Shown: positions 1-42,682, numbered from the stretch's first letter. The stretch: 64,000 bases of DNA from Dictyostelium discoideum (GCA_000004695.1 CM000151.3:3296001-3360000), one strand, 5' to 3'. Translations and numbers: made by a program. Notes: generated from the sequence alone by a model not told the origin.

Positions 1-1967
1 ATTTGATCATCTGATCTTGAAACGATTGTAAAATTATTATCTTGGTCTTTAAATGCCAAATCACCTGAAAAATAATAATAACCTTTTTCCATATTCAATA
101 AATTTGTTTTGAATAATTTTTTAAATTGTTCATTATTTTTATAAAAGGTTAATGCAAATCCAGGTGGTAAAGGTAATTTAAATACCAACTCTCCAATTTC
201 ATTTTTATTTAATGATTTTTTACCACTACTCGTACCACTATCACTACCACTACTACTACCACTACAAACACTATTACCACCACCAACATCACTATTATTA
301 TAACAAACTTCCTCTTCTTCTTCTTCAGAGAGTATGAATGATTTTAAAGAAGGAGTTGGCTGACCAATTACCATTATATTACCTCTACCACTACTACTAC
401 CACTACCACTACCACTACCACTACCACTACCACTACCACTACCACAACCACTACCACTACCACTACCACTACCACTACCACTACCACTACCACTACCACT
501 ACCACTACCACTACTGTTACTATTACTGCTAACATTGGATCTGTTTGATTTTTTAAAATCAAATAAATATATATTACCAGTTTCAGTTTGACCATATATA
601 TTTGAAGCAGATTTTTTTAATTTGTTTTCAATATAATTTGCAACTGATTTTTCAACTACATCAGCACCAACTAAAATTGTATTTAAACTTGATAAATTAT
701 AATTTGATAATATAAACTCTGCATTTGGGTCATCTTTAATTAAAAGTCTAATTGATTTAGGACCAATAAAAAATTTGTTTACCTTATGTTTTTCAATAAC
801 TTTCCAAAGTTGATACTTGATTTGATTTAATTCACAAATTCCACCTTCAAACATTATAAAAATATTCCCTGTTGATAATAATGAATATAGAAAACCATGA
901 AATGTTACCCAACCAATACTTGAATGTGAAAAGAATTTAATTAAATCTGAATTAGTATTATTATTATTAACTTCATCATTTAAAAACATACATCTACATG
1001 TATATTTAACACCAACTAAATGTGGACCATTACTTCTTACAACTGCTTTAGCGTTACCAGTTGTACCACTTGTATATAGAATATATAATGGATGACTTGA
1101 ATCTACTGGTATATAATCATAAAATGGTGATTGATTATTTTCTTTGAATTTTTTAATTTCATCATACCAACTTAATGTATTTGGTATCGTTGGTATTGTT
1201 TCAATTATTGTTTTTAAAGTTAAATTTGCATTATAATCACCATCATCTCTATTATGTATAATTATATGATTTGGTTTAAAATTTGATTGTTCAATTGCTT
1301 CTTTTAAATTTGGTGTAAATGTAATAATTTCATCATTTGAAATACCATAATTTGTTGTGATAATCAATTTTGGTGTAATTGTTTCAATTCGATCTATTAA
1401 ACTTTTAACTGAATAACCATCAAATAATGTACAATAAGTTGCACCAATACGAGCACATGATAACATTGCAATTGGTGCTTCAACTGTATTTGCCATATAA
1501 ATTATAACGTTATCATTTTTTGAAACATTTAAATTTAAAAGTGCTCTTGAAAATTCACATACTTTTTCATATAATTGATAGTATGTTAGTTTAATTGTTT
1601 TCTTTAAAAATGGACATTCATAAATTAATGCATCTTGATCTCTTTTTGCAGGATTTTTAATATGAATATCTAAAACGTTATAACATGTATTTAATTCACC
1701 ACCTTTAAACCAATCTGGATAAATTTCATCACCACTATAAACTTTATCATACATTCTATCCCTTTTTTTTTATTATTATTTAAAATTTTAAATTGTATGT
1801 GTTAAAAAATTATTTTATTTAAAAATACTTTTAAAAATTATAAAATTGTTACTGAATACAAACCAATGAACGAAATTCTTAGCAACTTCATCCCAAAATT
1901 CTATTGGTTGGTTATTTGAAAAGCTGAAGTCTTTGTCATAATTAAATGGTTCACTTAATCTATTCAT
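1..1967 (-). CDS. PrpE/ACSS3-like short-chain acyl-CoA synthetase paralog (A0), partial. Exon 1 is about 1874-1967 and exon 2 is 1-1761, truncated at the window edge inside the ...SRSDDQI motif.
   Basis: The reverse-strand translation gives MNRLSEPFNYDKDFSFSNNQPIEFWDEVAKNFVHW, then an intron (gtttgt...ag), then DRMYDKVYSG... Downstream are the AMP-binding motifs YGQTETG (rc near 545-600) and GYYYFSGDLAFKDQDNNFTIVSRSDDQ (rc of 1-80). Paralogy to the plus-strand copies at 8.7-19.9 kb is evident at the nucleotide level. Confidence 0.8.
338..540. repeat. (CCACTA)n hexamer microsatellite. It encodes a (Gly-Ser)n tract on the minus strand, inside the A0 synthetase CDS.
   Basis: About 30 direct copies of ccactaccacta are visible. 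Both ORF-track entries here (an HY-repeat on + and a poly-V on -) are out-of-frame readings of this repeat. Confidence 0.85.
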
Positions 1968-2419
1968 TTTTTTTTATTATTATTATTGTATTATTCAATT
2001 AAATGATGATATATTTGAATTCATTTTTTTTTTTTTTTTTTTTTTTTTAATAAAAGGTTTAAAGAAAAAAAAACAAAAAAAACAAATGAATTTATTATAT
2101 TATTTATATATTTTTAACATTGTTCTTTAATTTATTAATAAAATAATAAACTTCAAACAATTTTTTTTTTTTTTTTTAGTTATTTTTTATTTGGGCACCA
2201 AAAATAAAAATTTAGGTGTTTTTTGATGTTGAAACTTTTTTTTTAATAACTATTACCAACATAATATATTTTCGTCTTTAAAAAAAAAAAAAATCAGTTT
2301 TTTTTTTTTTTTTTTAATGACCTGTTTTTTGTCTTTTCGGAATTTGAGGTGTTTTTATTTTCAAATAAAAAAATGGCTTTTTAAAAAAAAATAATAAAAA
2401 AAAAAGTGAAAATAAAAAT

Positions 2420-2495
2420 AATAACCAGATTGGTCATTAACCCTTTTGTAATATTATTAGTGCAAACAAGATTCGGATGAAAAGCTTTTTTATTT
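2420..2495. repeat. Decayed partial duplicate of the 3' coding end of the 3D-domain gene, sitting in its 3' flank.
   Basis: 2445-2490 (aatattattagtgcaaacaagattcggatgaaaagcttt) is about 80% identical to 2600-2640 (aatatttttagtacaatcaaggtttggatttaaagcttt). The shared aaccagattg motif occurs at 2425 and at 2575. Confidence 0.5.
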
Positions 2496-2555
2496 TTTTT
2501 TTTTAATTTTTTTTGGAAGTTTGGATAAATTATTTAAAATTAAAATAAGAGGAAT

Positions 2556-3315
2556 TTATGGACCACCACAAGAACCAGATTGACAAACAGATTTACCTTT
2601 TGCAATATTTTTAGTACAATCAAGGTTTGGATTTAAAGCTTTGAAACGAGTTTCACTTAAAAGGAACATTGAAGCAGCAGATGAACAAGACATACTTGAT
2701 GGAATTTGACAAGTGTTACCACATTCATTACCTTGATCAACACAATTATCAGGTGTTTTTAAACATGCTCCAGTGGTGCCATTAAAGAAAGCGGTTGTAT
2801 CAACGGCATAGGTTGAAAGTGGATCAATGATAAATTGGGTTGATGAAAGTGTTAAAGCAACCTCACAATTGGTAGTACCAGAATGAATAGTACTTGGACC
2901 AATCCAAGCATCCATATGATATTTTCCATTACTGTCCCATTCATTTTCACATTCTTCACATGAATCTTCCATAATGAAATATTTCTTATAAGCTGCTACA
3001 TATACTTTCTTACCAGCTGATAACCATGCAGTTGATGCTGCAACTGTGATTGGATTAGCATATGTACCTAAACCACCTGCACTAGAATGTAATCCTGGAT
3101 ATGCAATTTCACCACTTGGTGGACAATTATCACCAGCAGCATAAAATGTTAATTCACCAGTAACTATACATATTTTAAAAAATAAAATAAAATAAATCTT
3201 AATATATTTTTTTTTTTTTTAATTTTACAAAATTAAAATTTTTACCTTTTTTTTCTGCTTGAGAAGAAATAAATAAAACTGATGCAAGGAATAATAATGA
3301 TTTGAGTAATTTCAT
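2556..3315 (-). CDS. Secreted 3D-domain / double-psi beta-barrel (MltA/YuiC-like) protein with a Cys-rich C-terminal tail. It has 2 exons, about 3246-3315 and 2556-3163.
   Basis: Exon 1 encodes the signal peptide MKLLKSLLFLASVLFISSQAEKK, ends at a GT donor, and the intron closes on ...atag. Exon 2 reads VTGELTFYAAGDNCPPSGEIAYPGLHSSAGG...ITVAASTAWLSAGKKVYVAAYKKYFIMEDSCEECENEWDSNGKYHMDAWIG. The T-x-Y ... VAxD ... GxxVYV ... EDxG ... xDxW layout resembles bacterial 3D domains. Six or more further Cys follow. Confidence 0.6.
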
Positions 3316-3588
3316 TTTTTTTATTTTAATAATTAAATGATTTTTGTTTATGATTTTTTTTTTCAAAAAAAGTCCAGTATTTATACTAAAAAAAAAAATA
3401 AAAAAAAAAACTTATTATCTTTTATTATTATTTTAATAATTTTATTGTAATCATTTTGTTAAAAAAAAAAAAAAAAAATTAATTGAACTAATATTATTCT
3501 TTTTAGACTTTTAACTATATAAATCAAAAGCTATAGATTTAAAAATCTTTTTTATCATTTTCTTATCTAAATTGTAACCTTTTAAAAT

Positions 3589-3623
<35 letters not shown>

Positions 3624-3939
3624 CACAAACAAGATTCTTTAATGTGAAATTAGTTATCGGGGGAGCTATTCCAAAAACAAAAATAAAAAATAAAAATAAA
3701 TAAAATAAAAAATAAACAAATGGTATTAAATTAATATCAATAATTTGGATTAAAATTGATTAGTTTTTTTTTTTGAAAAAAAAAAAATAAAATCTCGACT
3801 AAACCACAGTCCAAAAATTGGTTCAGTGAAATTGAATTAAAAAAAAAAAAGTGATGATAGAAATTCTGACTATTATTAGTGATTTTTAGAATATCCAATC
3901 AACCTCCTTTGTAGTTTTTTTTTTTTTTTTAAAAAATAA

Positions 3940-3955
3940 TAAAAATTATAATGAC

Positions 3956-4045
<90 letters not shown>
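3940..4045. repeat. (AAT)n / (ATA)n microsatellite, intergenic.
   Basis: A perfect trinucleotide run of about 100 bp. Confidence 0.9.
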
Positions 4046-4046
<1 letters not shown>

Positions 4047-4431
4047 TAAATCAGAGAATTAAACTAAAAATATTTATCAAATTGAGAAAAAATAAATTTC
4101 GTTTTTAAACTTTTTAAGGTTATTCGCATATAAAAAAAAGAGACCACAAGATATTTTTCACTTAATGATGAAAATTTTACATCCACCCTTATTTTTTTTT
4201 TAATTTTTTTTTTTTTTTAATTTTTTTTTTCTCGCTTTGAGTCAAAACCACTTATTTTTATTACAACTTTTTTTAATTTTTAATTTTTAATCAAGATCAC
4301 TTAATTAATCACTTTTTTTAAAGTTTTTTAATTTCTTATTATGTTTTTTTTTTTATTATTATCTCATTAAAAATAAAAAATAAAGATAAAAAAAAAAAAA
4401 TAAAAAAAAAAAAAATAAATAAAATAAATAA

Positions 4432-5293
4432 ATGTCATATTACAAAGATGAAATTTTAAACTCTTTAAATTTATCAGATTTTTGTTATGAAAAAGATGAT
4501 TCAACAATAATTAAAAAATTTAATGAAAATTTTGAAACTCATGATATTGAAAGAGTAATTAGAGGTGAGATTGAATGTAGTGGTCAAGTTTTTATAATTG
4601 GATATCGTGAAAAAGATATTAATAATAATAGTGAATTTAAAAGAAGGAATACCTATTATGTATCATTTAGAGGTACAGAATTTAATTTTAGTGATATTAC
4701 AACCGATTTAAATAGTATTAAAGAATTTAAAGAAAAACAAGGTACATATCATAAAGGATTTCTTAAAAGGACAATAGGATTTCCAATTCAAATTATAATT
4801 CAATGGTTAGAGAATGGTGATAATGTAATATTCTCAGGACATAGTTTAGGTGGATCAGTATCACAAATTTTAACAATATCTATAATTTTACAAATATCAA
4901 AAAATAAACTTGAAACCATTTTAAAAAATTCACAAATTCTATGTATTACATTTGGGTCACCATTAATTGGAAATACTGATTTATTAAAAACATTAGAAGA
5001 TAATCAAATTTTAAATTATAATATATTTCATTCAATTATTCATAGAAATGATCCAATACCAAAATTGCAAGGTTTAAATAATTTTGTTAATAATAATATG
5101 TTATCAATTGCAAAGAATACAATTTGTTGGTTATTTGAATTTGATAGAATTAAAATTGATGGAATTATAAATTCATTTTATCAAACATTATCAGAATCTT
5201 CAAAATCTAGTTTAAATTCAAAATTTAATTTTATGGCAGATTTAAATTCAGTAATTGGTTTATATCATATCATTCAACATGATTTATATATTG

Positions 5294-5376
<83 letters not shown>

Positions 5377-5880
5377 TATAGTTTTATAAAATCATTATGC
5401 CATAAAAATGATTTAAATGAATTAAATGAATTTTTTAAATTTAATCATGAAAATTTCTCAAAAATTCTATTTCATAAATTATCAACTTATAGAGATATTT
5501 TGATTTATGAATTAATAACATCAAAAGTATTAAAAAATTCAACAACAACAACAACAATAATATCAAATAAAGTAAAACCAATGGTAGATTTAATTCCTAT
5601 TATTAAAAGTGTTTCAATTAACAAAAGTAATAAAAAAAATGAATTGATTACAATTGTTGGTGAAAATTTATGTTTTATTTCTATAAATACATTGAAATTA
5701 ATTTATAGTGATGGAACAAAGGATATTTTATTGAAATCAATAATTCAAAAGAGTAATAATCAAATTGTTATTGACGCTACTGACATACCAACTGGCAATT
5801 TAAAATCACTTCAATTTAAATCAAATTTTAAATATAATAACACAAGTAGTAATAATGAAATTTATTTACAACAAATTTAA
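4432..5880 (+). CDS. Lipase class 3 (fungal-lipase-like alpha/beta hydrolase) protein with an internal poly-Asn tract.
   Basis: It is a 482-aa ORF whose GHSLGG nucleophile-elbow motif (VIFSGHSLGGSVSQ) sits in the appropriate N-terminal-half context. The (AAT)n at 5296-5385 encodes N30. Confidence 0.75.
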
Positions 5881-5908
5881 TTTTTTTTTTAGCTACTCAT
5901 AATTCTGG

Positions 5909-5945
<37 letters not shown>

Positions 5946-6299
5946 AAGTAATTGGGTACCGTGACCGACTGACAACAAGCACATCATAAACCTTACTTTT
6001 CGCCGCTTTAGTGCTGGAAATTTTATATCCGACCTGCCAACTTTTTAGATACTTTTTTTTTTTTTTCAAATGCACGAGTTTTTTGGGCATTAAGTTTTTT
6101 CGTCTTAGAGGGGTTGCCGGAAAAAAAAAAGTGAAAAAATACTTTTTTTTTTCCACCTTACCAAACCTAAAAATATTGGATAAAATAAACAAATTTTTGA
6201 AAAAAAAAAAAAAAAAAAAAATATTTGTTTATCTAATGCATTATAAAAATAATAATAATAATTATAATTATTATTTAAAAAAAAGGAGAAAGGTTAAAA

Positions 6300-6893
6300 A
6301 TGAAATTTTTTATTTTAATTTTTATTTGTTTAATGGTTACAACATATGTTTTTGGATTTAAATATACAAAAATTGAAGTCCATAATTTATATGATGACAA
6401 TTGTTCATTGCAACCCTATGAAATTGTTTATCAATTAAATGGATGGTGCGTAGATGGTAATACTAATATCGAATGTAACGAAGATGGAACAGTGATTACA
6501 CAAAATGTTTTTGGTACTAATAGTGGTTGTAAAGGTGCAAAAACAGGTAATATTACAAATGCCAGTGGTACATGTGCATTTGAGAATGTAGTTTATTCAT
6601 GTGTTGATGATTTCGAAATTCCTGAAAATACATTAGTCAGTGTAGTTACAAATGGTAAATGTGAAAATGATCCAAGTTGGAAAGATGATATTGGTTTAAT
6701 TGGTTATGAATACTTGAATCAATGTATTCAAAATTATAAAGGTGCTTTTGAATTAACTTGTAATTCTTCAATTCCATATAAAAATATTTACAATTCCACA
6801 AGTGTTTGTAATACTGTTCCAACTGGTTATGGATGGTTTAGTCCAAATGAATGTTCAAAAAATGATCCAACTTTTTACTATTGTAATGTTTAA
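6300..6893 (+). CDS. Secreted cysteine-rich protein of unknown family.
   Basis: It is 197 aa, with the N-terminal signal peptide MKFFILIFICLMVTTYVFG and many spaced Cys. Its GC content is above the intergenic background. Confidence 0.55.
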   Translation: MKFFILIFICLMVTTYVFGFKYTKIEVHNLYDDNCSLQPYEIVYQLNGWCVDGNTNIECNEDGTVITQNVFGTNSGCKGAKTGNITNASGTCAFENVVYSCVDDFEIPENTLVSVVTNGKCENDPSWKDDIGLIGYEYLNQCIQNYKGAFELTCNSSIPYKNIYNSTSVCNTVPTGYGWFSPNECSKNDPTFYYCNV

Positions 6894-6922
6894 AAATTTA
6901 AAACAAATTTTAAATAAATAAA

Positions 6923-6956
<34 letters not shown>

Positions 6957-7395
6957 TAGCGTTTTAAAACACCACTATTTTTATTTTTTATTTGCATTAA
7001 AATGAATTTAAATAAAAAAAAAAAAAATGAAAAATAAAAATAAAATTTGAAAAAACAGATAAAGATGAAGATATGGATAATTAATTTATTTTATTTTATT
7101 TTATTTATTTTTTTTTTCAAACCTAAAAATATTCCAAAACATTCTTTACGACTTTTTTTTAGGTCAAACGAATCCCGAAAAACAAAAGAAGAAAAAAATT
7201 AAAATAAAATCGAAAAATAATAAAATTAAAAATAAAATAAATTAAAATAAAAATAAAAAAAAAAAAAAAAATTAAAATAAAAACGTGCTAAAAAAAAAAA
7301 AAAAAAAACTAGTCTTTAAAGTTATTTATATATACAATCCTAGGTGACAACATTATTATAGGGATGAATTAATTACAACAAATAAATATTCAAAC

Positions 7396-8331
<936 letters not shown>

Positions 8332-8336
8332 TTAAA

Positions 8337-8450
8337 TTAATAATAATAATAATAATAAATAATAATAATAATAAATAATAATAATAATAAATAATAATAA
8401 TAAATAATAATAATAGTTAGTAATAATAAAATAAAAAAATTTAAATTATA
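8337..8450. repeat. (AAT)n microsatellite immediately 3' of the HPP gene. The same arrangement recurs at 10780-10900, 11270-11340 and 13770-13870.
   Basis: Direct trinucleotide runs start within a few nt of the stop codons. Confidence 0.9.
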
Positions 8451-8774
8451 TGTTATACACCCCCACAATTTGTAATTATCCTTATTTTTTAATTTATTTT
8501 TTATTTTATCTGATTGGTTCAAAATTTAAATAAAGATAATAATAATAAAAAAAAATTAAAAATAAATTAATTAATATTGTATATCGCAGTTAATAGTGGT
8601 TATAAATCTACACCAGATTTAATAATTGTTTTCCACCTTTTTTTTTTTTACTTTTATTATTTATTTTATTTTATTATTTAGTTATTATTTTTTTTAAACT
8701 TTTTTTATATAAAACTATTATTTGTTTTATTTTAATATCATTTTATTTAATAATACATATATTACCTTATAAAA

Positions 8775-10775
8775 ATGTATAAGTTTAATTATGAAAATGA
8801 TATTGATTTTGCAAATAACCAACCAATAGAATTTTGGGATGAAGTTGCAAAGGATTTAGTTCATTGGTAAGTTTTTTTTATTTTTCTAAATTGTCTTGAC
8901 AAAAAACTAATAATTTAAAAATAAAAGGGATAAAATGTATGAAAAAGTTTATAGTGATGATGAAATATATCCAGATTGGTTTAAAGGTGGTGAATTAAAT
9001 ACATGTTATAATGTTTTAGATATTCATATTAAAAATCCAGAAACAAGAGATCAAGATGCATTAATTTATGAATGTCCATATTTAAAGAAAACTGTAAAAT
9101 TAACTTATTATCAATTATATGAAAAAGTATGTGAATTTTCAAGAGTACTTTTAAATTTAAATATATCAAAAAATGATAATGTTTTAATTTATATGTCAAA
9201 TACATTAGAACCATTAATTGCAATGTTATCATGTGCTCGTATTGGTGCAACTCATTGTGTGTTATTCGATGGTTATTCAGTTAAAAGTTTAATAGATAGA
9301 ATTGAAACAATTACACCAAAATTAATAATTACAACAAATTATGGTATTTTTAATGATGAAATTATTAATTTCATACCAAATTTAAAAGAATCAATTGAAT
9401 TATCAACTTTTAAACCAAGTAATGTAATTACTTTATTTAGAAATGATATTACAAGCGAATCAGATTTAAAGAAAGTAAATGATATACCAACGATACCAAA
9501 TACATTAAGTTGGTATGATGAAATTAAAAAATTCAAAGAAAATAATCAATTACCATTTTATGAATATGTACCAGTAGAATCAAGTCATCCATTATATATA
9601 CTATATACAAGTGGTACAACTGGTAATTCTAAAGGGGCTGTTAGAAGTAATGGTCCACATTTAGTTGGTATTAAATATCAAACATTGATACAAAAGGGTA
9701 AAACAAAAGTAGTATTTTATCATACAAGTGTTGGGTGGATATCAATTCATAATGCTTTTAATGGTTTATTATCACTTGGATATACATTGGTTATGTTTGA
9801 AGGTGGGCTTACTAAAACAAAACATATGGAAGATGATATTTGGGAAGTTATTGAAAGAAATAAAGTAACTTGTGCATCCATAATGGCTAAAGCAATTAGA
9901 TACTTAATTAAAGTTGATCCTGAATGTAAAAATTTACATTCAAAGTATGATTTATCAAATTTAAAAGAAATAATAGTTGGTGGAGAACCAATTGAAGAAT
10001 CAATTCCAAATTATATTCAAGAGAAATTAAAAGTAAAGTCAATTCGTGTATACGGTCAAACTGAAACTGGAGCATGTTATTTTTATTGTTATGATTATAA
10101 AAATTTAAAAATTCCTATTAACACAAGTGGCTTTCCATTTTCATCTTTAAAAGCAATGATTTTTTCAGATGATGGCAAAGAATTAGGTGTTAATGAAATT
10201 GGAGAGCTTGTATTTAAATTACCATTACCACCAAGTTTTGCAACTACATTTTATAAAAATGATGAAAAGTTTAAACAATTATTTACAAAATTCCCAGGTT
10301 ACTATAACCCTGGTGATTTAGGATTTAAAGATGAAAATAATTGTTATGGTGTTGTTTCAAGATCAGATGATCAAATTAAAATCAGTGGTAATAAAGTTCA
10401 ATTAAATAAAATTGAAACATCAATTTTAAAACATCCATTAGTTTTAGAATGTTGTTCAATAGGTATTTATAATCCAGATTGTTATAATGTACCAATAGCT
10501 TTTTTAGTTTTAAAACAACAAGAAGATCAATCAATTCAACAAATTGATTTAAATAAATTACAATCTGAAATTAATATAATCATTTCAAAAGATATAGAAA
10601 ATTTTGCAATTTTAAGAAAAACTTTAATAGTTACACAAATACCGAAAACCAAAGCTGGTAAAATTCAAAGACAAATCATTTCTAAATATTTAAATGATAT
10701 AAATTATGAATTACCAGATAATGTTTGTGATGTTGAAATCTTTTATAAAATCAAGGATTTATATAATAATGTTAA

Positions 10776-10779
<4 letters not shown>
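8775..10779 (+). CDS. PrpE/ACSS3-like acyl-CoA synthetase paralog A1. Exon 1 is 8775-8866 and exon 2 is 8928-10779.
   Basis: Exon 1 reads MYKFNYENDIDFANNQPIEFWDEVAKDLVHW, joined through gtaagt...aaaag to GDKMYEKVYSDDEIYPDWF... The AMP-binding motifs are present: YTSGTTGNSKG, YGQTETG, GDLGFKDENNCYGVVSRSDDQIKISG and LPKTKAGKIQR. The match to E. coli PrpE includes LPLPP versus GPLPPG and the LPKTRSGK region. Confidence 0.85.
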
Positions 10780-10841
<62 letters not shown>

Positions 10842-10899
10842 GTAATAATAATAATAATAATAAAAATAAAATAATAATAATAATAATAAAATAATAATA

Positions 10900-11290
10900 A
10901 TAGGTTCATTTGCAGCATCTACTGTATTAATTTTTGGAGCACCAAATCACCATTAGCTCAACCAAGAAATTTAGTATTTCGACATATAGGTTCAATCATT
11001 AGAGTGCATTTGGTTTATACAAATGCTCAAACTGAAGTAGCACTCTTTAGCGGTCAGTTTAGCAATTGTCGGGATGCATTTCACAAAATCAATACATCCA
11101 CCCGGTGGTGCCACTGCCTTAATTTGTGTTATGAGTGCTGAACAATGCTGAAGAGGTTTTTATTATATATCCTTACCTGTGGCATCGGGTTCTTTAGGAA
11201 TGTTACTAACCTCATTAATTGTTAATAATTTTACAAGAAAGAGAAAGTATCTGTATTTTGGTGGTAATTAAATTAATAATAATAATAATA
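10900..11290 (+). pseudogene. Decayed duplicate of the 3' third of the HPP-family gene (copy of 7930-8340).
   Basis: It is collinear with GSFAASAVLIFGAPKSPLAQPRNLV...IHPPGGATALICVMS...FARKRKYPVFWW but carries indels and frameshifts, for example 'caccattagctcaacc' missing one nt, and a TGA in 'caatgctgaagagg'. The same (AAT)n and 3' flank follow it. Confidence 0.8.
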
Positions 11291-11479
11291 ATAAATAATA
11301 ATAATAATAATAAATAATAATAATAATAATAATAATAAAAATAAAAATAGCTAGTAATAATAAAATAAAAATATTTAAATTATATCTTATACACCCCAAT
11401 TTGTAATTCATCTTTATTTTTTTATTTTATCTTATTGGTTCAAAATTTAAATAAAGATAAGATACATAATAAAATTTTT

Positions 11480-11580
11480 TAAAAAATTAAATACATGTTA
11501 TAATGTTTTAGATATTCATATGAAAAATCCATTAAAAATAGATCAAGATGCATTAATTTATGAATGTCCGTATTAAAGTT
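11480..11580 (+). pseudogene. Short decayed fragment of the synthetase exon 2 (NTCYNVLDIHMKNPLKIDQDALIYECPY*).
   Basis: It is collinear with A1 8995-9085 and ends in TAA. Confidence 0.6.
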
Positions 11581-11761
11581 TTTTTTTTTCAATGTTTTTG
11601 AACCAATAGGATAATATTAATTATTACAAATATATGTAAAAAAAGGTTATAAATCCCATACCCAATTTGTTAATTGTTTTAAACTTTTTTTTTTTTATGT
11701 ACCATTATTTTTTTTTTTATTATTATTTTATTTTATTAATATCGTTTAATTTAATAAAAAA

Positions 11762-13767
11762 ATGTATAAATTTAACTATGAAAATGAAATTGATTTAGCA
11801 AATAACAGACCAATAGAATTTTGGGATGAAGTTGCAAAGGATTTAGTTTATTGGTAAGTTTTTATTTCTTTTTTTTATTTTTTCAATTGTCATTGCAAAA
11901 AACTAATAATTTAAAATTAAAAAAAAAGGGATAGAATGTATGATAAAGTTTATAGTGGTGATGAAATTTATCCAGATTGGTTTAAAGGTGGTGAATTAAA
12001 TACATGTTATAATGTTTTAGATATTCATATAAAAAATCCAGAAACAAGAGATCAAACTGCATTAATTTATGAATGTCCATTTTTAAACAAAAATATAAAA
12101 TTAACCTATTATCAATTTTATGAAAAAGTATGTGAATTTTCAAGAGTACTTTTAAATTTAAATATATCAAAAAATGATAATGTTTTAATTTATATGTCAA
12201 ATACAATTGAAGCACCAATTGCAATGTTATCATGTGCTCGTATTGGTGCAACTCATTGTGTGTTATTCGATGGTTATTCAGTTAAAAGTTTAATAGATAG
12301 AATTGAAACAATTACACCAAAATTAATAATTACAACAAATTATGGTATTTTTAATGATGAAATTATTACATTTACACCAAATTTAAAAGATGCAATTGAA
12401 TTATCAACTTTTAAACCAAGTAATGTAATTACTTTATTTAGAAATGATATTACAAGCGAATCAGATTTAAAGAAAGTAAATGATATACCAACGATACCAA
12501 ATACATTAAGTTGGTATGATGAAATTAAAAAATTCAAAGAAATTAATCAATTACCATTTTATGAATATGTTCCAGTAGAATCAAGTCATCCATTATATAT
12601 AATATATACAAGTGGCACAACTGGTAGTGCTAAAGCAGTTGTTAGAAGTAATGGTCCATATATGGTAGGTATTAAATATCAAACATTGATACAAAAGGGT
12701 AAAATAAAAGTTGTGTTTTCTCATACAAGTATTGGCTGGGTATCATTTCATAATCTATTATATGGTTTATTTTCAGTTGGATATACATTAGTTATGTCTG
12801 AAGGAGGAGTGACAAAACCAAAACATATGGAAGATGATATTTGGGAAATTATTGAAAGAAATGAAGTAAGTTGTGCATTCACAATGGCTAAAGCAATTAG
12901 ATACTTAATTAAAGTTGATCCTGATTGTAAAAATTTACATTCAAAGTATGATTTATCTAATTTAAAAGAAATGGTACTTGGTGGAGAACCAATTGAAGAA
13001 TCAATTTCAAATTATATTCAGGAGAAATTAAAAGTTCAATCAACTCGTGTATATGGTCAAACTGAAACAGGTGTCGTTTATTTTTAGGTTTTGATAATAA
13101 AAATTTAAAAATTCCAATTAATACATGTGGAGTTTCATTTCCATCTTTAAAAGCAAAGGTTTTTTCAGATGATGGTAAGGAATTACCTTTGTATGAAATT
13201 GGTGAGCTTGTATTTAAATTACCTTTACCACCAGGTTTTACAACTACATTTTATAAAAATGATGAAAAGTTTAAACAATTATTTACAAAATTTCCAGGTT
13301 ACTATTACCCTGGTGATTTAGGATTTAAAGATGAAAATAATTGTTATGGTGTTGTTTCAAGATCAGATGATCAAATTAAAATCAGTGGTAATAAAGTTCA
13401 ATTAAATAAAATTGAAACATCAATTTTAAAACATCCATTAGTTTTAGAATGTTGTTCAATAGGTATTAATAATCCAGATTGTTATAATGTACCAATTGGT
13501 ATATTAGTTTTAAAACAACAAGAAGAAAATCAATCAATTCGACAAATTGATTTAAATAAATTACAATCTGAAATTAATACAATAATATCAAAGGATATAG
13601 AAAATTTTGCAATTTTAAGAAAAATTTTAATAGTTCCACAATTACCAAAAACTAAAGTTGGTAAAACTCAAAGACAAATCATTTCTAAATATTTAAATGA
13701 TACAAATTTTCAATTACCAGATAATGTTTGTGATGTTGAAATCTTTTATAAAATTAAAGATTTATAA
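11762..13767 (+). pseudogene. PrpE/ACSS3-like acyl-CoA synthetase paralog A2. It is disabled by an in-frame TAG and a 1-nt deletion just after the YGQTETG motif. Exon 1 is 11762-11853 and exon 2 is 11929-13767.
   Basis: A1 reads ...GACYFYCYDYKNLKIP while A2 reads ...GVVYF* (tat ttt tag gtt ttg ata ata), and the A2 segment is 1 nt shorter. The ORF then resumes in another frame at 13189 and runs to the normal C-terminus. Confidence 0.7.
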
Positions 13768-13775
13768 TAATGTTA

Positions 13776-13875
<100 letters not shown>

Positions 13876-14728
13876 GAGTATCTTTTGAAAGTTTGTTTTT
13901 ACTAAAAAATTTAAAAATTTTCAAATTTAATATTAAATAAAATTACCAAAAATTAAAAAAGTAAAATATTAACCTCTAATATGGAAAAATTATTAAAAAC
14001 ATTTTTTTTTAATTAGGATTAGAATAGTGTTAAATTAAAAAATTAAAAAAATAAGAAATAAGTTAATATAAAATTCAACCCAATGTATATATAAATTACC
14101 CATTGTGGTTTTTACCCCCTCCCCCATGTGTTTTTTTATATTTTAATTTTTAATTAAAAGAATTATTATTAATTTTTTAAAAATTAAAAAAAAAAAAAAA
14201 AAAGATAATAATATAAAATTCAAGTACTTGAAAAGGTAAAAAAAAAACAAAATAAAAAAAAAAAGATTAAAAATGATTTACCTACATAGAAAGGGGGTAA
14301 TAATTTCACCATTAAGGGACAGACATAAATGAAATCAATTAATATTTAAAAAAAAAACAATATATTTTCATTTTTTCATTTTGATTATTAATAATTAAAA
14401 ATACAATTTACTTTTTTAAAGTACATAAAAATACCTTTTTTAAAAATAATTTCAAAAAAGTAATATCTATAGGCTTAATTAGAATGAAATTAAATAATAT
14501 TTTAATTATTAAAAAGTCTAAAGATATCTCAAAACAATTAAATGACGTCGTAAAATTTTTATTTTTTAAATTTTTTTTTTTATTAAATGTAAATATTATA
14601 TGAAGAGTTATCAATTTTAAATTATAAAAAAAAAAAAAAAAAAAACTTATATTTACATTTTTTATATAATCCAATATTATTGAAAATTTTAATAATAAAA
14701 ATATATTTTTATAAAAACTATTAAAATA

Positions 14729-16764
14729 ATGTATACATTAAGCCAACCATTCAATTATGAAAATGATTATAAATTCTCAATAAACACCGACCCAATTTCA
14801 TTTTGGGATCAAGTAGCCACTAAATATGTTTATTGGTATGCATACAATAAAAAAAAACATAATTAGTTAAATAAATAATTAAATTTTTTATAAATATAAT
14901 TTAAAAATAAAAAAGGGATAAAATGTATGATAAAGTTTATAGTGGTAATGAAATTTATCCAGATTGGTTTAAAGGTGGTGAATTAAATACATGTTATAAT
15001 TTATTAGATAGACAAGTTCAGAATCCATTAAAAAAAGATCAAGTTGCATTAATTTATGAATGTCCATATTTAAAGAAAACTGTAAAATTAACTTATTATC
15101 AATTATATGAAAAAGTATGTGAATTTTCAAGAGTACTTTTGAATTTAAATGTTTCAAAAAATGATAATGTTTTAATTTATATGGCAAATACAGTTGAAGC
15201 ACCAATTGCAATGTTATCATGTGCTCGTATTGGTGCAACTCATTGTGCTTTATTCGATGGTTATTCAGTTAAAAGTTTAATAGATAGAATTGAAACAATT
15301 ACACCAAAATTAATAATTACAACAAATTTGGGAGTTGGACTTGATGAAATTGTTGATATTACTACAAATTTAAAAGAAGCAATTGAATTATCAACTTTTA
15401 AGCCTGACAATGTAATAACACTTTATAGAAATGATATTGTTTATAATAATAATAATTTCCAAACAATAATACCAAATTCATTAAATTGGGAAGAAGAAAT
15501 TAAAAAAATTAAAATTAATAATCAATCACCATTTTATGATTATGTACCAGTAGAATCAAGTCATCCAATCTATTTAATTTATACAAGTGGTACAACTGGT
15601 AATTCTAAACCAGTTGTAAGAAGTAATGGTAGTAATTTGGTTGGACTTTTATATCATTGGAATTGTTTAAGTTCAAAGGTTAATAATGATGAAAATGTAG
15701 TTTTATTTTCTGCAACTAGTGTTGGATGGGTGTCATTCCATATGTTCTTTTATGCATCATTATCAAAAGGAAATACATTTGTAATGTTTGAAGGTGGTTT
15801 CTTAAAACAAAATAATGTTGAAGATGACATTTGGGCAACCATTGAAAAACATAATGTAAACATTTATTTAGCATTACCAATTGTAATGAGATATCTTAAG
15901 AAAATGGATCCCAATGCTGAAAGATTACATTCAAAATATGATATATCACGTTTAAAGCAAGTTTGGATTGGTGCTGAAGTTATTGAAAAATCAATTCAAG
16001 ATTATATTGAAAATAAATTAAATGCTGAATCAATTGGTTTATATGGTCAAACTGAAAGTGGAATGATGTATATTTATGAATATTCAAGTATAAATAAAAC
16101 ATATGATACAGTAGGTATACCATCACCATTTATTAAACCATCAATATTATCTGAAGATGGTAAAGAGTTGGGTGTTAATGAAATTGGTGAATTCTCTCTC
16201 AAATTACCATTACCACCTGGATTTGCGACTACATTTTATAAAAATGATGAACAATATAAAAAATTATTTTCAAAATTTCCAGGTTATTATAATTCTGGTG
16301 ATTTAGGTTATAAAGATGAAAATGGATATTATGGTATTGTTTCAAGAGCTGATGATCAAATTAAAATTAGTGGTAATAAAGTTCAACTAAATACAATTGA
16401 ATCATCAATTTTGAAACATCCAAATGTTATTGAATGTTGTTCAATTGGTATTAATGATTATGATTGTTATAAAGCACCAATTGGTATATTGGTTTTAAAA
16501 AAACAAGATTCAATTTTAGATTTCAATCAATTAAAAAATGAAATTAATAATATTATTAATGATGATATTGAAAGTTATGCTGAACTAAAACAAATTATCA
16601 TTGTAAATCAATTACCAAAAACTAAAAGTGGTAAAATTCAAAGACATATACTTTCTAATTATTTAAATAACAATAATTTTAAATTACCAGATAATATTGA
16701 AAATCTTCAATTATTTTATAACATAAAAGATTCTTTTATTAAAAACTCAAATAAAAATATTTAA
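14729..16764 (+). CDS. PrpE/ACSS3-like acyl-CoA synthetase paralog A3. Exon 1 is 14729-14835 and exon 2 is 14915-16764.
   Basis: Exon 1 reads MYTLSQPFNYENDYKFSINTDPISFWDQVATKYVYW, joined through gtatgc...aaaag to GDKMYDKVYSGNEIYPDWF... It runs to a full-length 613-aa exon 2 with all AMP-binding motifs. Confidence 0.85.
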
Positions 16765-17340
16765 TCCAAAAAAAAATTTTAATCTATAATAAAAATAAAT
16801 AAATATATATATTTTTATAATTCAATTATTTATTTTTTGTTCAATATAAAAGTAATTTTATAAGTAAGAGTTTTTTTTCACATAAAAATATTCCACACAG
16901 ACACAGTGCGTGTTTTTTAATTTAACCCCTTTAATACATTTACTTATTTTTATTTGTATTGAAAATTTTTGTGGTTGGTTGTTTATAACCCGAAACTTTT
17001 TTAATATATTTTATTAAAAGACAAAAAAATAAACAAATAATTAAAATTCCACAATAAACAAGTATTTTTTTTTTTTCATCTTTGATAAAATATATCCATC
17101 TATAATTTCTTTTTATTTTAATTCATTATTTTCTTTAAAAGGATAAATAATGAAAAAGTTTTATTTTAAATTTCCACATTTTATGTTTTCCACTTTTTTT
17201 TTTTCACATAAAATTTATTTTTACTTTTAAATTTTATTTTTTTTAAAAAATAAAATATAATGATTTTTAAATTTTTTTTTTTTTATTAATTAATTACAAA
17301 AACTTGAAAAAACAACGAAAAAACAACGAAAAAAATAAAA

Positions 17341-17700
17341 TGTTTAAATTAAGTGATCCTTTTGATTATGAAAATGATTACAATTTCTCTCAAATTAATC
17401 CAATTTAATTTTGGGACGAAGCTCACTGGTATGCACTTCACAAAAAAAAAAAAAAAAAAAAAAAAAAACAAATTTTAACATATAATAAATAAAAAAAAAA
17501 AAAAAAAGGGATAAAATGTATGATAAAGTTTATAGTGGTGATGAAATTTATCCAGATTGGTTTAAAGGTGGTGAATTAAATACATGTTATAATTTAATAG
17601 ATATTCATATTAAAAATCCATTAAAAAGAGAATAAGATGTATTAATTTATGAATGTCCATTTTTAAAGAAAACAATTAAAAGAGTTTCAGACCAATTTTT
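17341..17700 (+). pseudogene. Truncated 5' duplicate of a synthetase gene: an exon-1-like segment with an in-frame TAA, a remnant intron, and about 55 codons of exon 2 ending in TAA.
   Basis: It reads MFKLSDPFDYENDYNFSQINPI*FWDEAHW, then gtatgc...ag, then GDKMYDKVYSGDEIYPDWFKGGELNTCYNLIDIHIKNPLKRE*. After ...FLKKTIK similarity is lost. Confidence 0.75.
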
Positions 17701-17882
17701 TTCTTTTTTAAATTTGCTGATTAATTTTTATTAAGATTTTTTGACAAAAAAAAAAAAAAAAATCTTCGATAAAATAAAAAAAAAAAAAAAAAAGATTAAT
17801 AAACTTTTTTTTTTTTTTTTTTTTTTTTTAATTTTATTTTATTAAAATAATTTTGGAAAAAAATGAAATTAAGTGATCCTTT

Positions 17883-19894
17883 TGATTATGAAAATGATCT
17901 AAAATATGCAGAATCCCAACCTGTTTCATTTTGGGATGACATTGCCAAAAAATATATACATTGGTAAGTTTAAAAATTTTGTAAAATAAATTATTAATAA
18001 TTTAAAAAATATAATAAAATTCCAATTATACCAATAAATAATTTAAAAAAAAAGGGATAAAATGTATGATAAAGTTTATAGTGGTGATGAAATGTATCCA
18101 GATTGGTTTAAAGGTGGTGAATTAAATACATGTTATAATGTTTTAGATATTCAAGTTCAAAATCCATTAAAAAGAGATCAAGACGCATTAATTTATGAAT
18201 GTCCATTTTTAAAGAAAACTGTTAAATTAACTTATTATCAATTATATGAAAAAGTATGTGAATTTTCAAGAGTACTTTTAAATTTAAATATTTCAAAAAA
18301 TGATAATATTTTAATATTTATGGCAAATACAGTTGAAGCACCAATTGCAATGTTATCATGTGCTCGTATTGGTGCAACTCATTGTGTACTATTCGATGGC
18401 TATTCAACAAAAAGTTTAATAGATAGAATTGAAGCTGTAAGACCAAAAGTTATTATTACCTCAAATTATGGTATTTTAAATGAGGAAATTATTACATTTA
18501 CACCAAATTTAATTGAAGCAATTGAAATATCAACTTTTAAACCAGATCATGTAATTACACATAATAGAGATTTAATTAGTTCCGATGCACAATTATCAAT
18601 AATTGAAACTATACCTACTGTACCATCTTCTTTGGATTGGGACTTGGAAATCAACAAAATTAAAGAAAACAATCAAACACCATTCTATGAATATGTTACA
18701 GTAGAATCAAGTCATCCACTTTACATTATTTATACAAGTGGTACAACTGGTAATTCAAAAGGAGTTGTTAGAAGTAATGGTCCACATTTAGTTTGTTTTG
18801 GTTATCTTTGGCCATCAATTGTTCAAAAAAATACTACTTTCTTTTCTCATACTAGTATAGGATGGGTATCGTTTCATTCATTTTTGTATGCTTCATTATT
18901 ACATGGATGTTCATTTGTGATGTTTGAAGGTGGAATTGTAAAACCAAAACATATGGAAGATGATATTTGGTCAATTGTTGAAAAGCATAAAGTTAGTGCA
19001 TTTCTAACATTAGCAAAAACAATAAGATATTTAAATAAAGTTGATCCAGATGCAAAACAAATACATTCAAAATATGATATTTCAAGTTTAAAATCAATTT
19101 GGAATGGTGGTGAAGTTATTGAAGATTCAATTCCAGAATATATTGAAAACAAACTAAAATCAAGACCATCTATTGGATATGGTCAAACTGAAACTGGTTA
19201 TTTGTATTTATTCGATTACATAAAATCAAAAAAAAATCCATACAACACAGTTGGTCCACCATCACCATTTGTCTACCCATCAATTTTATCAGAAGATGGT
19301 ATTGAATTACCAGTGAATCAAATTGGTGAAATCGTATTCAAATTACCATTACCACCTGGATTCGCTTCAACATTTTATAAAAATGATGAACAATTTAAAA
19401 AAGTTTTAACAAAATTCCCAGGTTATTATAGTAGTGGTGATTTAGGTTATAAAGATGAAAATGGATATTATGCTATCGTTTCAAGAGCAGATGATCAAAT
19501 TAAAATTGGTGGTAATAAAGTTCAATTAAACACAATTGAAACATCAATTTTAAAACATCCAAATGTTATTGAATGTTGTTCAATTGGTATTTACAATCCA
19601 GATTGTTATAATAAACCAATTGGTTTATTAACTTTAAAACAACAAGATTCAAATGTCGACTTAATTCAATTAAAAAATGAAATTAATAGTATCATCACAC
19701 AAGATATTGATAAATTTGCTCAATTAACACATATAATAATTGTTGAACAATTACCAAAAACTAAAAGTGGTAAAATCCAAAGATTAATCATTTCTAAATT
19801 TTTAAATGATAATAATTTTAAATTACCTGATCATGTATTTGAAAGTCAACAAATATATACAGATATTAAAAATTTATATTTAAATAATTTATAA
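17883..19894 (+). CDS. PrpE/ACSS3-like acyl-CoA synthetase paralog A4. Exon 1 is 17883-17963 and exon 2 is 18055-19894.
   Basis: Exon 1 reads MKLSDPFDYENDLKYAESQPVSFWDDIAKKYIHW, joined through gtaagt...aaaag to GDKMYDKVYSGDEMYPDWF... It is full length, at 610 aa. Confidence 0.85.
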
Positions 19895-41030: not shown

Positions 41031-42682
41031 GACGTTTTAATCAATTTATTACATGTAAAGGCTCAAATGGTGCAATGTCAGAAAATATTGCAGCTGGTAC
41101 AGATGCTCTTGAAGCTATTAAAATGTTGGTATGTGATGAAACTGGTGGTAAATGTGCTAATGATAAATCAAGTAGCGATGGACATCGTTCTTCCATTATG
41201 TCTAGTGATTATAAAACATTAGGTGTTGGTTACTATTCTAAATCTGGATCTGATTATACTCAATATTGGACCCAAGATTTCAATGAAGGTAATTGTAATT
41301 CACCAACAAATCCAATTTATTCTGGCTTTCATACTTGGGTAACAAGTAATCCACAATTCATTGTTTTATTTTATAGTACTACCGATAGTGTTTCAACTAT
41401 GTCATTGGTATTTGGTGACGGAACCTCAAAAGTTTTATCAAGAACTTATGGAACTGCAAGCTCTGGTGCTTATATTACAACTTCCACTTATGTCGCTTGC
41501 CAAGCATATTACTACGAAGTAAAAACCACTGGTTCAAAAACTTATAGATATCCTGAAACAGGTTTTTTACAAGTTTCTAAATCATCTTCATGTTCTGGAT
41601 GGGTTCTAGGTGCATCCGTAACACCAACAACAACTCCAACTGAAACTGTTACCCCAACTCCAACTGTGAGTGCTACCCCAACTCCCACTGAGACAGTAAC
41701 TCCAACACCCACAATGACTACTACTCCAACACCAACCGAAACTGTTACTCCAACTCCTACTGAGACTGTTACTCCAACCCCTACTGAGAGTGCAACTCCA
41801 ACTCCCACCGAAACAGTAACTCCAACTCCTACTGTGACTACTACTCCGGCACCAACTGAGACTGTTACTCCAACTCCTACTGAGAGTGCAACTCCAACTC
41901 CTAGTGAAACAGTAACTCCAACTCCTACAGTGACTGCCACTCCAACTCCAACTGAAACAGAAACTCCAACTCCTACCGAGACTGCCACTCCAACACCAAC
42001 CGAAACAGTAACCCCAACTCCTACAGTGACTACAACCCCAACTCCCACTGAATCAGTAACTCCTACCGAAACTGCCACTCCGACCCCAACTGAAACAGTA
42101 ACTCCAACCCCAACTGAAACAGTAACTCCAACCGATACTATTACTCCAACCCCATCCGAGAGTACAACCCCAACCGAGACTGTTACCCCAAATCCTTCTG
42201 AAACAGTAACTCCAACTGAGACCTCTACCCCAACTCCTTCTGAAGCTTCATCAGAAACCAGTATCCCATCTGATTCGTTGGATACTTCTAATCCAAGATC
42301 ATCTGATGAAACCTCTGAAACTCCATCAGATACATCTGGAAGTAACACTCAATTATCTAGTGATAACCCAGCAACTGATTCCTCAAGCAAAAATCAAAAT
42401 TCAGAAGATATTCCAATTATCTCGACTTCATCTGATGAAAGCTCTGGAGATATTGGGACTCCAATTGAAACTAAAAATCCAACAGAAAGTTCATCAATTG
42501 AAACCAATTCACAAGAATCTTCGACATCAACCTCTGAATCTTCTACACAACTCCCTGTTGATAATTTAGGAAGTGAATCAAAACATCAACATGAAGATTC
42601 AGACTCAGATTCAAGCTCATCAATTGTCTCAATTACTTATGTTTCATTTACATTTTTTGTACTATTATCTTTGATTTTATAA
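40611..42682 (+). CDS. Secreted CAP/SCP/PR-1-like domain protein with a long Thr/Pro mucin-like repeat region and a C-terminal hydrophobic GPI-anchor-like tail. It has 2 exons: 40611-40939 and 41032-42682.
   Basis: It has the signal peptide MKLLLSLIVLFFTFTKNVNS. CAP motifs are present (NCFQHNSCDG...; GHRSSIMSSDYKTLGVGYY...YWTQDF). About 25 copies of the 24-nt unit (TPTPTETV) span 41630-42240, followed by a Ser-rich region, and the protein ends ...SIVSITYVSFTFFVLLSLIL. Confidence 0.75.
41630..42240 (+). repeat. 24-nt (8-aa TPTPTE[T/S]V) tandem coding repeat within the CAP-domain gene.
   Basis: The unit actccaactcctactgaaacagta is repeated with synonymous variation. The antisense ORF 41542-42348 is an artefact of this repeat. 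Confidence 0.85.

Follow-up and report, generated by a model that had tools for sequence, protein, structure and literature searches.

Acetyl-CoA synthetases (Acs of S. enterica and E. coli, ACS1 of yeast), propionyl-CoA synthetases of the PrpE/ACSS3 type and the medium-chain synthetases MacsMa and human ACSM2A are adenylate-forming enzymes of the ANL superfamily and the closest described systems for the genes reported here. The human ACSM genes form a tandem cluster. A tryptophan in the acyl pocket of Acs and PrpE, the so-called Trp wall, is an experimentally established chain-length limiter, and with Gly in its place the pocket takes up acids of C4-C8 length as well as branched ones (PMC10455477, PMC8383264). 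Here we analyze an AT-rich stretch of 64,000 nucleotides from chromosome 2 of Dictyostelium discoideum AX4 (GCA_000004695.1 CM000151.3:3296001-3360000; the whole stretch is referred to as the window), the first 19,894 positions of which carry an array of genes related to these synthetases. A previous sequence-only reading had seen in it a recently expanding array of PrpE/ACSS3-like enzymes with a short-chain acid preference, possibly supplying starter units to polyketide synthases (PKS). Judged from sequence, the explanation that we as a whole consider probable is a different one: the array is one half, on the plus strand, of a cluster with two arms and a length of 36 kb, which encodes a dictyostelid-specific adenylate-forming subfamily of the Acs/PrpE clade with an opened pocket and, probably, larger-acid substrates.

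The units of the array were located by tblastn with three long open reading frames (ORFs) against the window, complemented by self-blastn, and are listed in Table 1. As had been read previously, there are six related two-exon units, namely three intact direct copies (A1, A3 and A4), a disabled copy (A2), a truncated 5' fragment (F2) and an inverted copy (A0); an additional 93-bp scrap, F1, had been missed. Direct reading of the DNA shows that exon 1 is short in each unit (31-36 codons), ending in ..(H/Y)-TG before the GT of the intron, and that exon 2 starts behind the AG with G GAT A(A/G)A ATG TA... A phase-2 intron within a Trp codon, likewise described before, is thus common to all units and is also found in the co-ortholog of D. 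purpureum. Among the copies, protein identity amounts to 61-87% and DNA identity to 75-91%. The spliced models of A1, A3 and A4 agree in every residue with public AX4 proteins, which are annotated as hypothetical proteins; these are already annotated, unstudied genes and not new ones.

The predicted proteins show the domain order ACAS_N, AMP-binding and AMP-binding_C, with all three domains scoring above the Pfam gathering cut-offs of 27, 29.9 and 24.5, respectively (A1: 59.1, 185.4 and 50.0 bits; A4: 63.3, 194.5 and 55.9 bits). For a residue-by-residue comparison the family was aligned with E. coli Acs and PrpE, and Acs numbering is used in the following. A1, A3, A4 and the conceptual translation of A2 keep the P-loop (T264/S265/G266), E417, D500, R515, the hinge residue D517 and the A10 lysine K609, as does PrpE. 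Domains and core catalytic residues assign the proteins to the Acs/PrpE/AACS branch of the ANL superfamily. They share the fold and core motifs of Acs, and with bacterial PrpE (E. coli b0335) and its counterpart in eukaryotes, ACSS3, they have in common a three-domain architecture with ACAS_N cap that can be aligned collinearly over the full length. That the nearest relatives are of the PrpE/ACSS3 type, as proposed in the sequence-only reading, is in line with our searches. The best match among solved structures is PDB 5gxd (E=1e-92), an entry for which no paper was found and which is named by its depositor's title only ('AMP-dependent synthetase and ligase'). Acs structures rank next, the best of them at 1e-76. 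The best non-dictyostelid matches are bacterial proteins named propionyl-CoA synthetase with 35-36% identity. A horizontal origin from bacteria was considered and rejected, since a resident dictyostelid ACSS3-like protein, P0052, is a nearer relative (40% identity) and the intron is shared with D. purpureum.

The acyl pocket, in contrast, departs from that of PrpE. Every member of the family carries the exchanges W414G, V386G and T311S. The wall Trp is retained in E. coli PrpE, in four bacterial PrpE-like matches and in P0052, and among the best 120 database matches it is present in 64/65 non-dictyostelid proteins, whereas 45/48 dictyostelid proteins in which the motif was found have Gly. A small residue at V386 is a property shared with PrpE (Ala in PrpE, Gly in the cluster proteins), but none of the copies combines it with the wall Trp in the manner of PrpE, to the E. 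coli representative of which they are only 28-29% identical. Neither do they show the combination of model score with V310, T311, V386 and W414 that marks Acs, of which they are no orthologs. The natural wall Gly mimics the engineered W416G variant of M. thermautotrophicus Acs, for which both C4-C8 and branched acids are substrates (PMC10455477, PMC8383264), and corresponds to the Gly found at this position in the medium-chain synthetases MacsMa and ACSM2A (PMC10455477). Membership in the Macs/ACSM branch does not follow from this likeness: those enzymes belong to another ANL branch without ACAS_N, the ACSM2A match (E=1.9e-16) covers residues 372-612 only, i.e. the C-terminal 240 residues, and the cluster proteins obtain no more than 136-146 bits with the NCBIfam MbcS model (cut-off 850). 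A further resemblance to ACSM is the tandem arrangement of paralogs with presumably differing acid preferences.

Taken together, W414G and V386G in all copies argue for predicted substrates larger than acetate or propionate. The proteins would act, probably in the cytosol, as acyl-CoA (or acyl-AMP) synthetases on carboxylic acids that exceed propionate in size (C4 and longer, branched or substituted acids). The competing view, i.e. recently expanding true PrpE/ACSS3-type synthetases for short-chain, propionate-like acids that diversify and feed PKS starter units, draws on the names of the bacterial matches, on 5gxd as best solved relative and on the NCBIfam PrpE models being among the top matches. 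The scores of these models are, however, far below the cut-offs, with 300-320 bits versus 827.4 and 346-370 bits versus 955 (TIGR02316 / NF007815); the Acs models (TIGR02188 / NF001208) reach 353-367 bits versus 657 and 725, so that both sets score about equally (300-370 bits), under or little above half of their cut-offs. Loss of the Trp wall, which limits chain length, argues in addition against a PrpE-like substrate range. No PKS gene was detected in Pfam scans of the ten largest ORFs of the window between 20 and 64 kb, which covers at least 44 kb to one side, and none was read in the available 6 kb past the outermost copy, B6, on the other side, which leaves starter-unit supply without local support. 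We thus regard short-chain enzymes of this kind as improbable here.

The paralogs probably differ in acid preference by virtue of segments near the pocket that evolve fast, in particular the stretch of 20-40 residues behind the YGQTETG motif. Evidence for such segments was obtained from windowed proportions of nonsynonymous (pN) and synonymous (pS) differences, pooled over ten old paralog pairs in A1 residue numbering. The ratio pN/pS has its maximum of 0.85 (pN 0.38) in residues 401-440, the stretch following YGQTETG, which is the fastest-evolving segment, just as the sequence-only reading had singled it out as divergent. The most variable residues are 401-440, 281-360, 201-240 and 561-600. 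The N-terminal 40 residues, which had been counted among the most divergent parts, show a pN of 0.20 and are not especially divergent.

Several observations weigh against our assignment of substrate and reaction. Compared to Acs and PrpE, residues of the CoA step are altered, namely H525N and R526K (SGNK for SGHR), and R584 is not conserved, so that the acceptor might be other than CoA or the reaction might proceed slowly. The cytosolic location is inferred solely from a missing N-terminal extension: the family start, MYKLSDPFNY, aligns with residue about 46 of P0052, which has kept both Trp and GHR and possesses a 45-residue Ser/Thr/Lys-rich extension, presumed to be a mitochondrial presequence. 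The cluster proteins are without it and thus lack the N-terminal presequence expected of ACSS3. Going by general knowledge of ANL enzymes, the segment behind A5 would line the enlarged pocket. Exact-product look-ups of A1, A3 and A4 yielded no short contigs of the RNA-seq type and no spliced transcript contig for any of the three, the expression and splicing of which rest on annotated models. Literature searches for twelve DDB_G ids and for Dictyostelium acetyl-CoA synthetase-like genes found no paper, and a comparative paper on D. discoideum and D. purpureum does not mention the family.

The altered CoA-step residues could also be taken to mean that CoA ligation is no longer the reaction of the family, which would then consist either of stand-alone adenylating enzymes with another acceptor (an amine, an alcohol or carrier-protein pantetheine) or of largely relaxed, decaying duplicates of little function. 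Besides SGNK in the A8 motif, the absence of both CoA-contact arginines of Acs, R191 and R584, would fit this, as would the Acs pantetheine-tunnel glycine G524, which is replaced by Tyr, Phe or Cys in the copies B4-B6, so that their thioester-forming step may be lost or altered. Dead units account for four or five of the roughly 13. Moreover, paralog dN/dS values (Nei-Gojobori method, NG86) range from 0.27 to 0.62, although between orthologs we obtain only 0.16 for A3, 0.17-0.22 for A4 and 0.34 for A1; all these figures are rough in a genome of 22% GC, which is a further point to be held against our reading. On the other hand, the two arginines are not diagnostic, because the ACSS3-like paralog and four bacterial PrpE-like matches already have Glu in place of R191, and E. 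coli PrpE has Asp in place of R584. The exchange R526K is conservative, the family retains the AMP-binding residues together with the catalytic Lys and the hinge Asp, and the intact copies contain no FAAL-type insertion. The low ortholog values of A3 and A4 show constraint, and the intact copies as a group are, by these ratios, under purifying selection. A departure from CoA ligation or a general relaxation hence seems unlikely to us, and synthetases of larger acids remain the preferred explanation.

The extent of the cluster became apparent from an independent D. discoideum assembly, in which look-ups with A1 and with one paralog, B5, retrieved two overlapping loci (L007 and L008). One of the loci matches the window to 99.94%. 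Their overlap is exact over 805 bp, and the joined sequence amounts to 43 kb; in this assembly the cluster is located at 2.72-2.76 Mb of a 3.6-Mb contig. The window array is one half of a 36-kb cluster with two arms; six further copies (B1-B6) lie past A0, outside the window. In the orientation of the window, the minus-strand arm, which runs leftwards off the window edge, reads B6, B5, B4, B3 (a pseudogene), B2, B1 and A0. The plus-strand arm has the order A1, F1, A2, A3, F2 and A4 and is followed by a TRAPPC10-like gene on the minus strand. A0, which had been included in the array, is indeed an inverted related copy; it is, however, split from A1 by 7 kb with four unrelated genes, and is the first member of the second, opposite array. 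The order of the spacer genes is identical in strain GCA_054859205.1. B4, B5 and B6 correspond to DDB_G0273305, DDB_G0273229 and DDB_G0273365, respectively, and two additional paralogs are located on chromosome 1. As a side observation, B4-B6 (L007 7281-16043), the copies with the replaced tunnel glycine, read QSEIG in place of QTETG.

Table 1. Positions of the synthetase-related units and of neighboring features in the window (- and +, minus and plus strand)
Feature	Position	Strand	Description
A0	exon 1 1967..1864, intron 1863..1762 (GTTTGT donor), exon 2 1761..1	-	inverted copy
Spacer between arms, 7 kb	2556..8331		four unrelated genes
Cys-rich ORF	2556..2972	-	spacer gene
Class-3 lipase	4432..5880	+	spacer gene
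CfaA/B/C-like secreted protein	6300..6893	+	spacer gene
HPP-family membrane protein	7396..8331	+	spacer gene
A1	exon 1 8775..8866, intron 8867..8927, exon 2 8928..10779	+	intact, 647 aa, DDB_G0273215 / DDB_G0273709
Dead copy of HPP 3' end	10898..11270	+	parent 7948..8331
F1	11485..11577	+	93-bp exon-2 patch, exon-2 codons about 20-49
A2	exon 1 11762..11853, intron 11854..11928, exon 2 11929..13767	+	young pseudogene
A3	exon 1 14729..14835, intron 14836..14915, exon 2 14916..16764	+	intact, 651 aa, DDB_G0273213
F2	17340..~17728	+	decayed 5' stub, remnant of a lost paralog (C lineage)
A4	exon 1 17863..17963, intron 17964..18054, exon 2 18055..19894	+	intact, 646 aa, DDB_G0273211 / DDB_G0273717

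Every cluster protein has two AX4 gene ids (see A4 in Table 1). A 750-kb duplication at about 2.25-3 Mb of chromosome 2 is known from strains Ax3 and Ax4 (PMC2643946). The window therefore lies within this Ax3/Ax4-specific duplication, and the reference genome holds a second identical copy of the whole cluster. The doubled ids are what one would expect if the repeats were a product of the laboratory strain, or of its assembly. Such a duplication doubles the entire cluster, however, and does not create the array within it. Compared pairwise, the copies in the window are merely 61-87% identical, as stated above, and hence no assembly duplicates; the independent assembly reproduces the window, and syntenic arrays with varying content occur in other strains and species. 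An assembly artefact is refuted for the array in the window by the divergence of the copies and by the independent assembly, and we attach next to no probability to the artefact or strain-duplication account as a whole.

The cluster grows through unequal tandem duplication in units of about 3 kb. In self-blastn, the segment 7943..10869 is repeated as 10898..13870 with 87-91% identity, and this event, from A1 to A2, co-copied a piece of the upstream HPP gene: since the repeat begins inside that gene, a dead HPP fragment is found between A1 and A2, disrupted by stops, by a deletion of 15 bp and by several indels of 1-2 bp. The duplication junction lies in an (AAT)n tract 3' of the A1 stop codon. 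F1, located in the upstream region of A2, is about 92% identical to A1 8993-9085, and the matching place upstream of A1 holds unrelated sequence; F1 has the appearance of a short insertion copied from a template, or of what a conversion event left behind.

Members are lost via point lesions and deletions, as seen in A2, F2, B3 and the C-terminus of A0. A2 was rightly recognized as disabled, but the stop and the frameshift ascribed to it are not two lesions. A single 1-bp deletion in a Tyr codon (TAT TTT TA(T) GGT to TAT TTT TAG GTT) yields both the TAG at 13085..13087 and the frameshift, and is the sole lesion, both flanking frames being otherwise open. An ortholog with A2-specific residues (P0023, 647 aa) is intact in another strain labelled D. 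discoideum. In F2, the exon-1-like part (17340..17428) contains a TAA and a 15-bp deletion and is followed by an intron-like part (17429..17508) and by about 70 codons of exon 2 with a stop, after which the unit ends. Its exon 1 reads MFKLSDPFDYENDYNFSQINPI, stop, FWDE..AHW, a match to the C lineage, of which the AX4-type cluster retains no intact gene; exon 1 thus settles the lineage of F2, the exon-2 part being ambiguous. A0 extends with its exon 2 about 265 bp past the window edge. At ~548..216 (minus strand), directly after the YGQTETG (A5) motif and thus exactly in the hypervariable segment, it carries an in-frame low-complexity insert of about 110 codons, rich in (GGT AGT)n Ser/Gly repeats and acidic residues. 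Outside the window (~250 bp; L008 971-1235), a frameshift immediately before the PKTKSGK (A10) motif puts the catalytic Lys out of frame, while the homologous C-terminus goes on in another frame. A0 is probably a decaying gene. B3 has suffered an internal deletion.

Copy content also varies between strains. In strain GCA_054859205.1 the syntenic arm (L013 4294-14474) consists of A1-A3-C-A4, without A2; the C gene is situated exactly between A3 and A4 and is apparently intact, although this rests on a 603-aa call for which the two-exon model was not rebuilt. A2 and C are thus each present or absent depending on the strain. The A4 protein of this strain differs from that of the window by about 6%, which suggests a cryptic species or fast evolution; another strain at similar divergence (96%) is labelled D. 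discoideum. In D. purpureum, a decayed second copy (L015 6598-8636), comprising an exon-1-like piece and short C-terminal pieces, is found 1.4 kb upstream of the single intact gene, so that copy turnover takes place in that species too.

In the 5' part of exon 2 the paralogs evolve differently from the remainder of the gene. A1 residues 41-160 have a pooled paralog pS of 0.13-0.21, compared with 0.26-0.49 for the other residues. Within the AX4 genome, codons 41-160 show a paralog pS of 0.10-0.21, whereas for the same codons A4 and its D. firmibasis ortholog differ with a pS of 0.32; the corresponding values for codons 261-640 are 0.30-0.47 and 0.37. Synonymous sites of the 5' tract hence change between species and stay alike within one genome. 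A low pS within the genome together with an ordinary pS between species is characteristic of inter-paralog gene conversion, by which the 5' third of exon 2 is repeatedly homogenized while the rest of the gene diverges. This tract, of which the sequence-only reading makes no mention, is the reason why F1 and F2 are about 90% identical to many copies, and its homogenization accounts for the ambiguous lineage of the exon-2 part of F2.

A neighbor-joining tree of 58 family proteins was used to date the expansion. Orthologs from D. firmibasis, D. citrinum, D. dimigraforme and "cf. discoideum" strains are present in each lineage (A1, A3, A4, B1/2, B4-6, C and the chromosome-1 paralogs). The one co-ortholog of D. 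purpureum branches outside all lineages. The main expansion therefore predates the split of D. discoideum, D. firmibasis, D. citrinum and D. dimigraforme. Only A1/A2 (dS 0.13), B1/B2 (0.14) and B4-B6 (B4/B5 0.21, B5/B6 0.04) are young, the dS of all remaining pairs being 0.29-0.57. The recent expansion claimed before, and with it the corresponding part of the short-chain alternative, thus applies to these young duplicates such as A1/A2 and B5/B6, and not to the main lineages, which are older than the species complex and of which A3 and A4 show the constraint described above.

Intact genes stand side by side with a pseudogene of a single lesion, with a decayed stub and with the duplicated fragment of a neighboring gene; orthologs group by lineage, and copy content varies. 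In this the locus bears out the earlier view of birth-and-death evolution, with the caveat that codons 41-160 evolve in concert. It resembles classical birth-and-death families with partial concerted evolution, in which intact genes, fresh pseudogenes and old stubs are likewise adjacent. It differs from them in that a defined conversion tract (codons about 41-160) lies beside the fast-diverging, pocket-bearing part of one and the same gene.

Elsewhere in the window, the most GC-rich part (GC 0.30-0.39) is found at 41075-42682 (plus strand); the encoded protein matches a CAP domain weakly and contains a long mucin-like repeat, (TPTPTETV)n, as well as a hydrophobic tail at the C-terminus.

In conclusion, the locus is overall an ordinary lineage-specific expansion of already annotated enzyme genes with one useful functional clue. 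Added here are the full extent of the cluster, the finding that one lesion disables A2, the derivation of F2 from the C lineage, the conversion tract and the loss of the Trp wall. As a long shot, the Gly-wall subfamily might constitute dedicated cytosolic acid activators for secondary metabolism or xenobiotic handling, in which each conserved paralog would have its own non-standard acid (branched, hydroxylated or aromatic) and, given the changed A8 and CoA-contact residues, perhaps an acceptor other than CoA, for instance a PKS carrier domain, with the conversion tract keeping a shared N-terminal interaction or regulatory surface identical as the pocket diversifies. Since the cluster is doubled in AX4 and the 5' 400 bp of exon 2 are nearly identical among paralogs, RNA-seq and knock-out designs must aim at the 3' two-thirds of the genes. 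The locus is a compact natural example of birth-and-death evolution with gene conversion in one part of a gene and fast divergence of the part that bears specificity. The repertoire of secondary-metabolite and detoxification genes of D. discoideum is very large and mostly unassigned, and a conserved set of at least 10 predicted acid-activating enzymes with an opened pocket provides a concrete and cheaply testable entry point to it.

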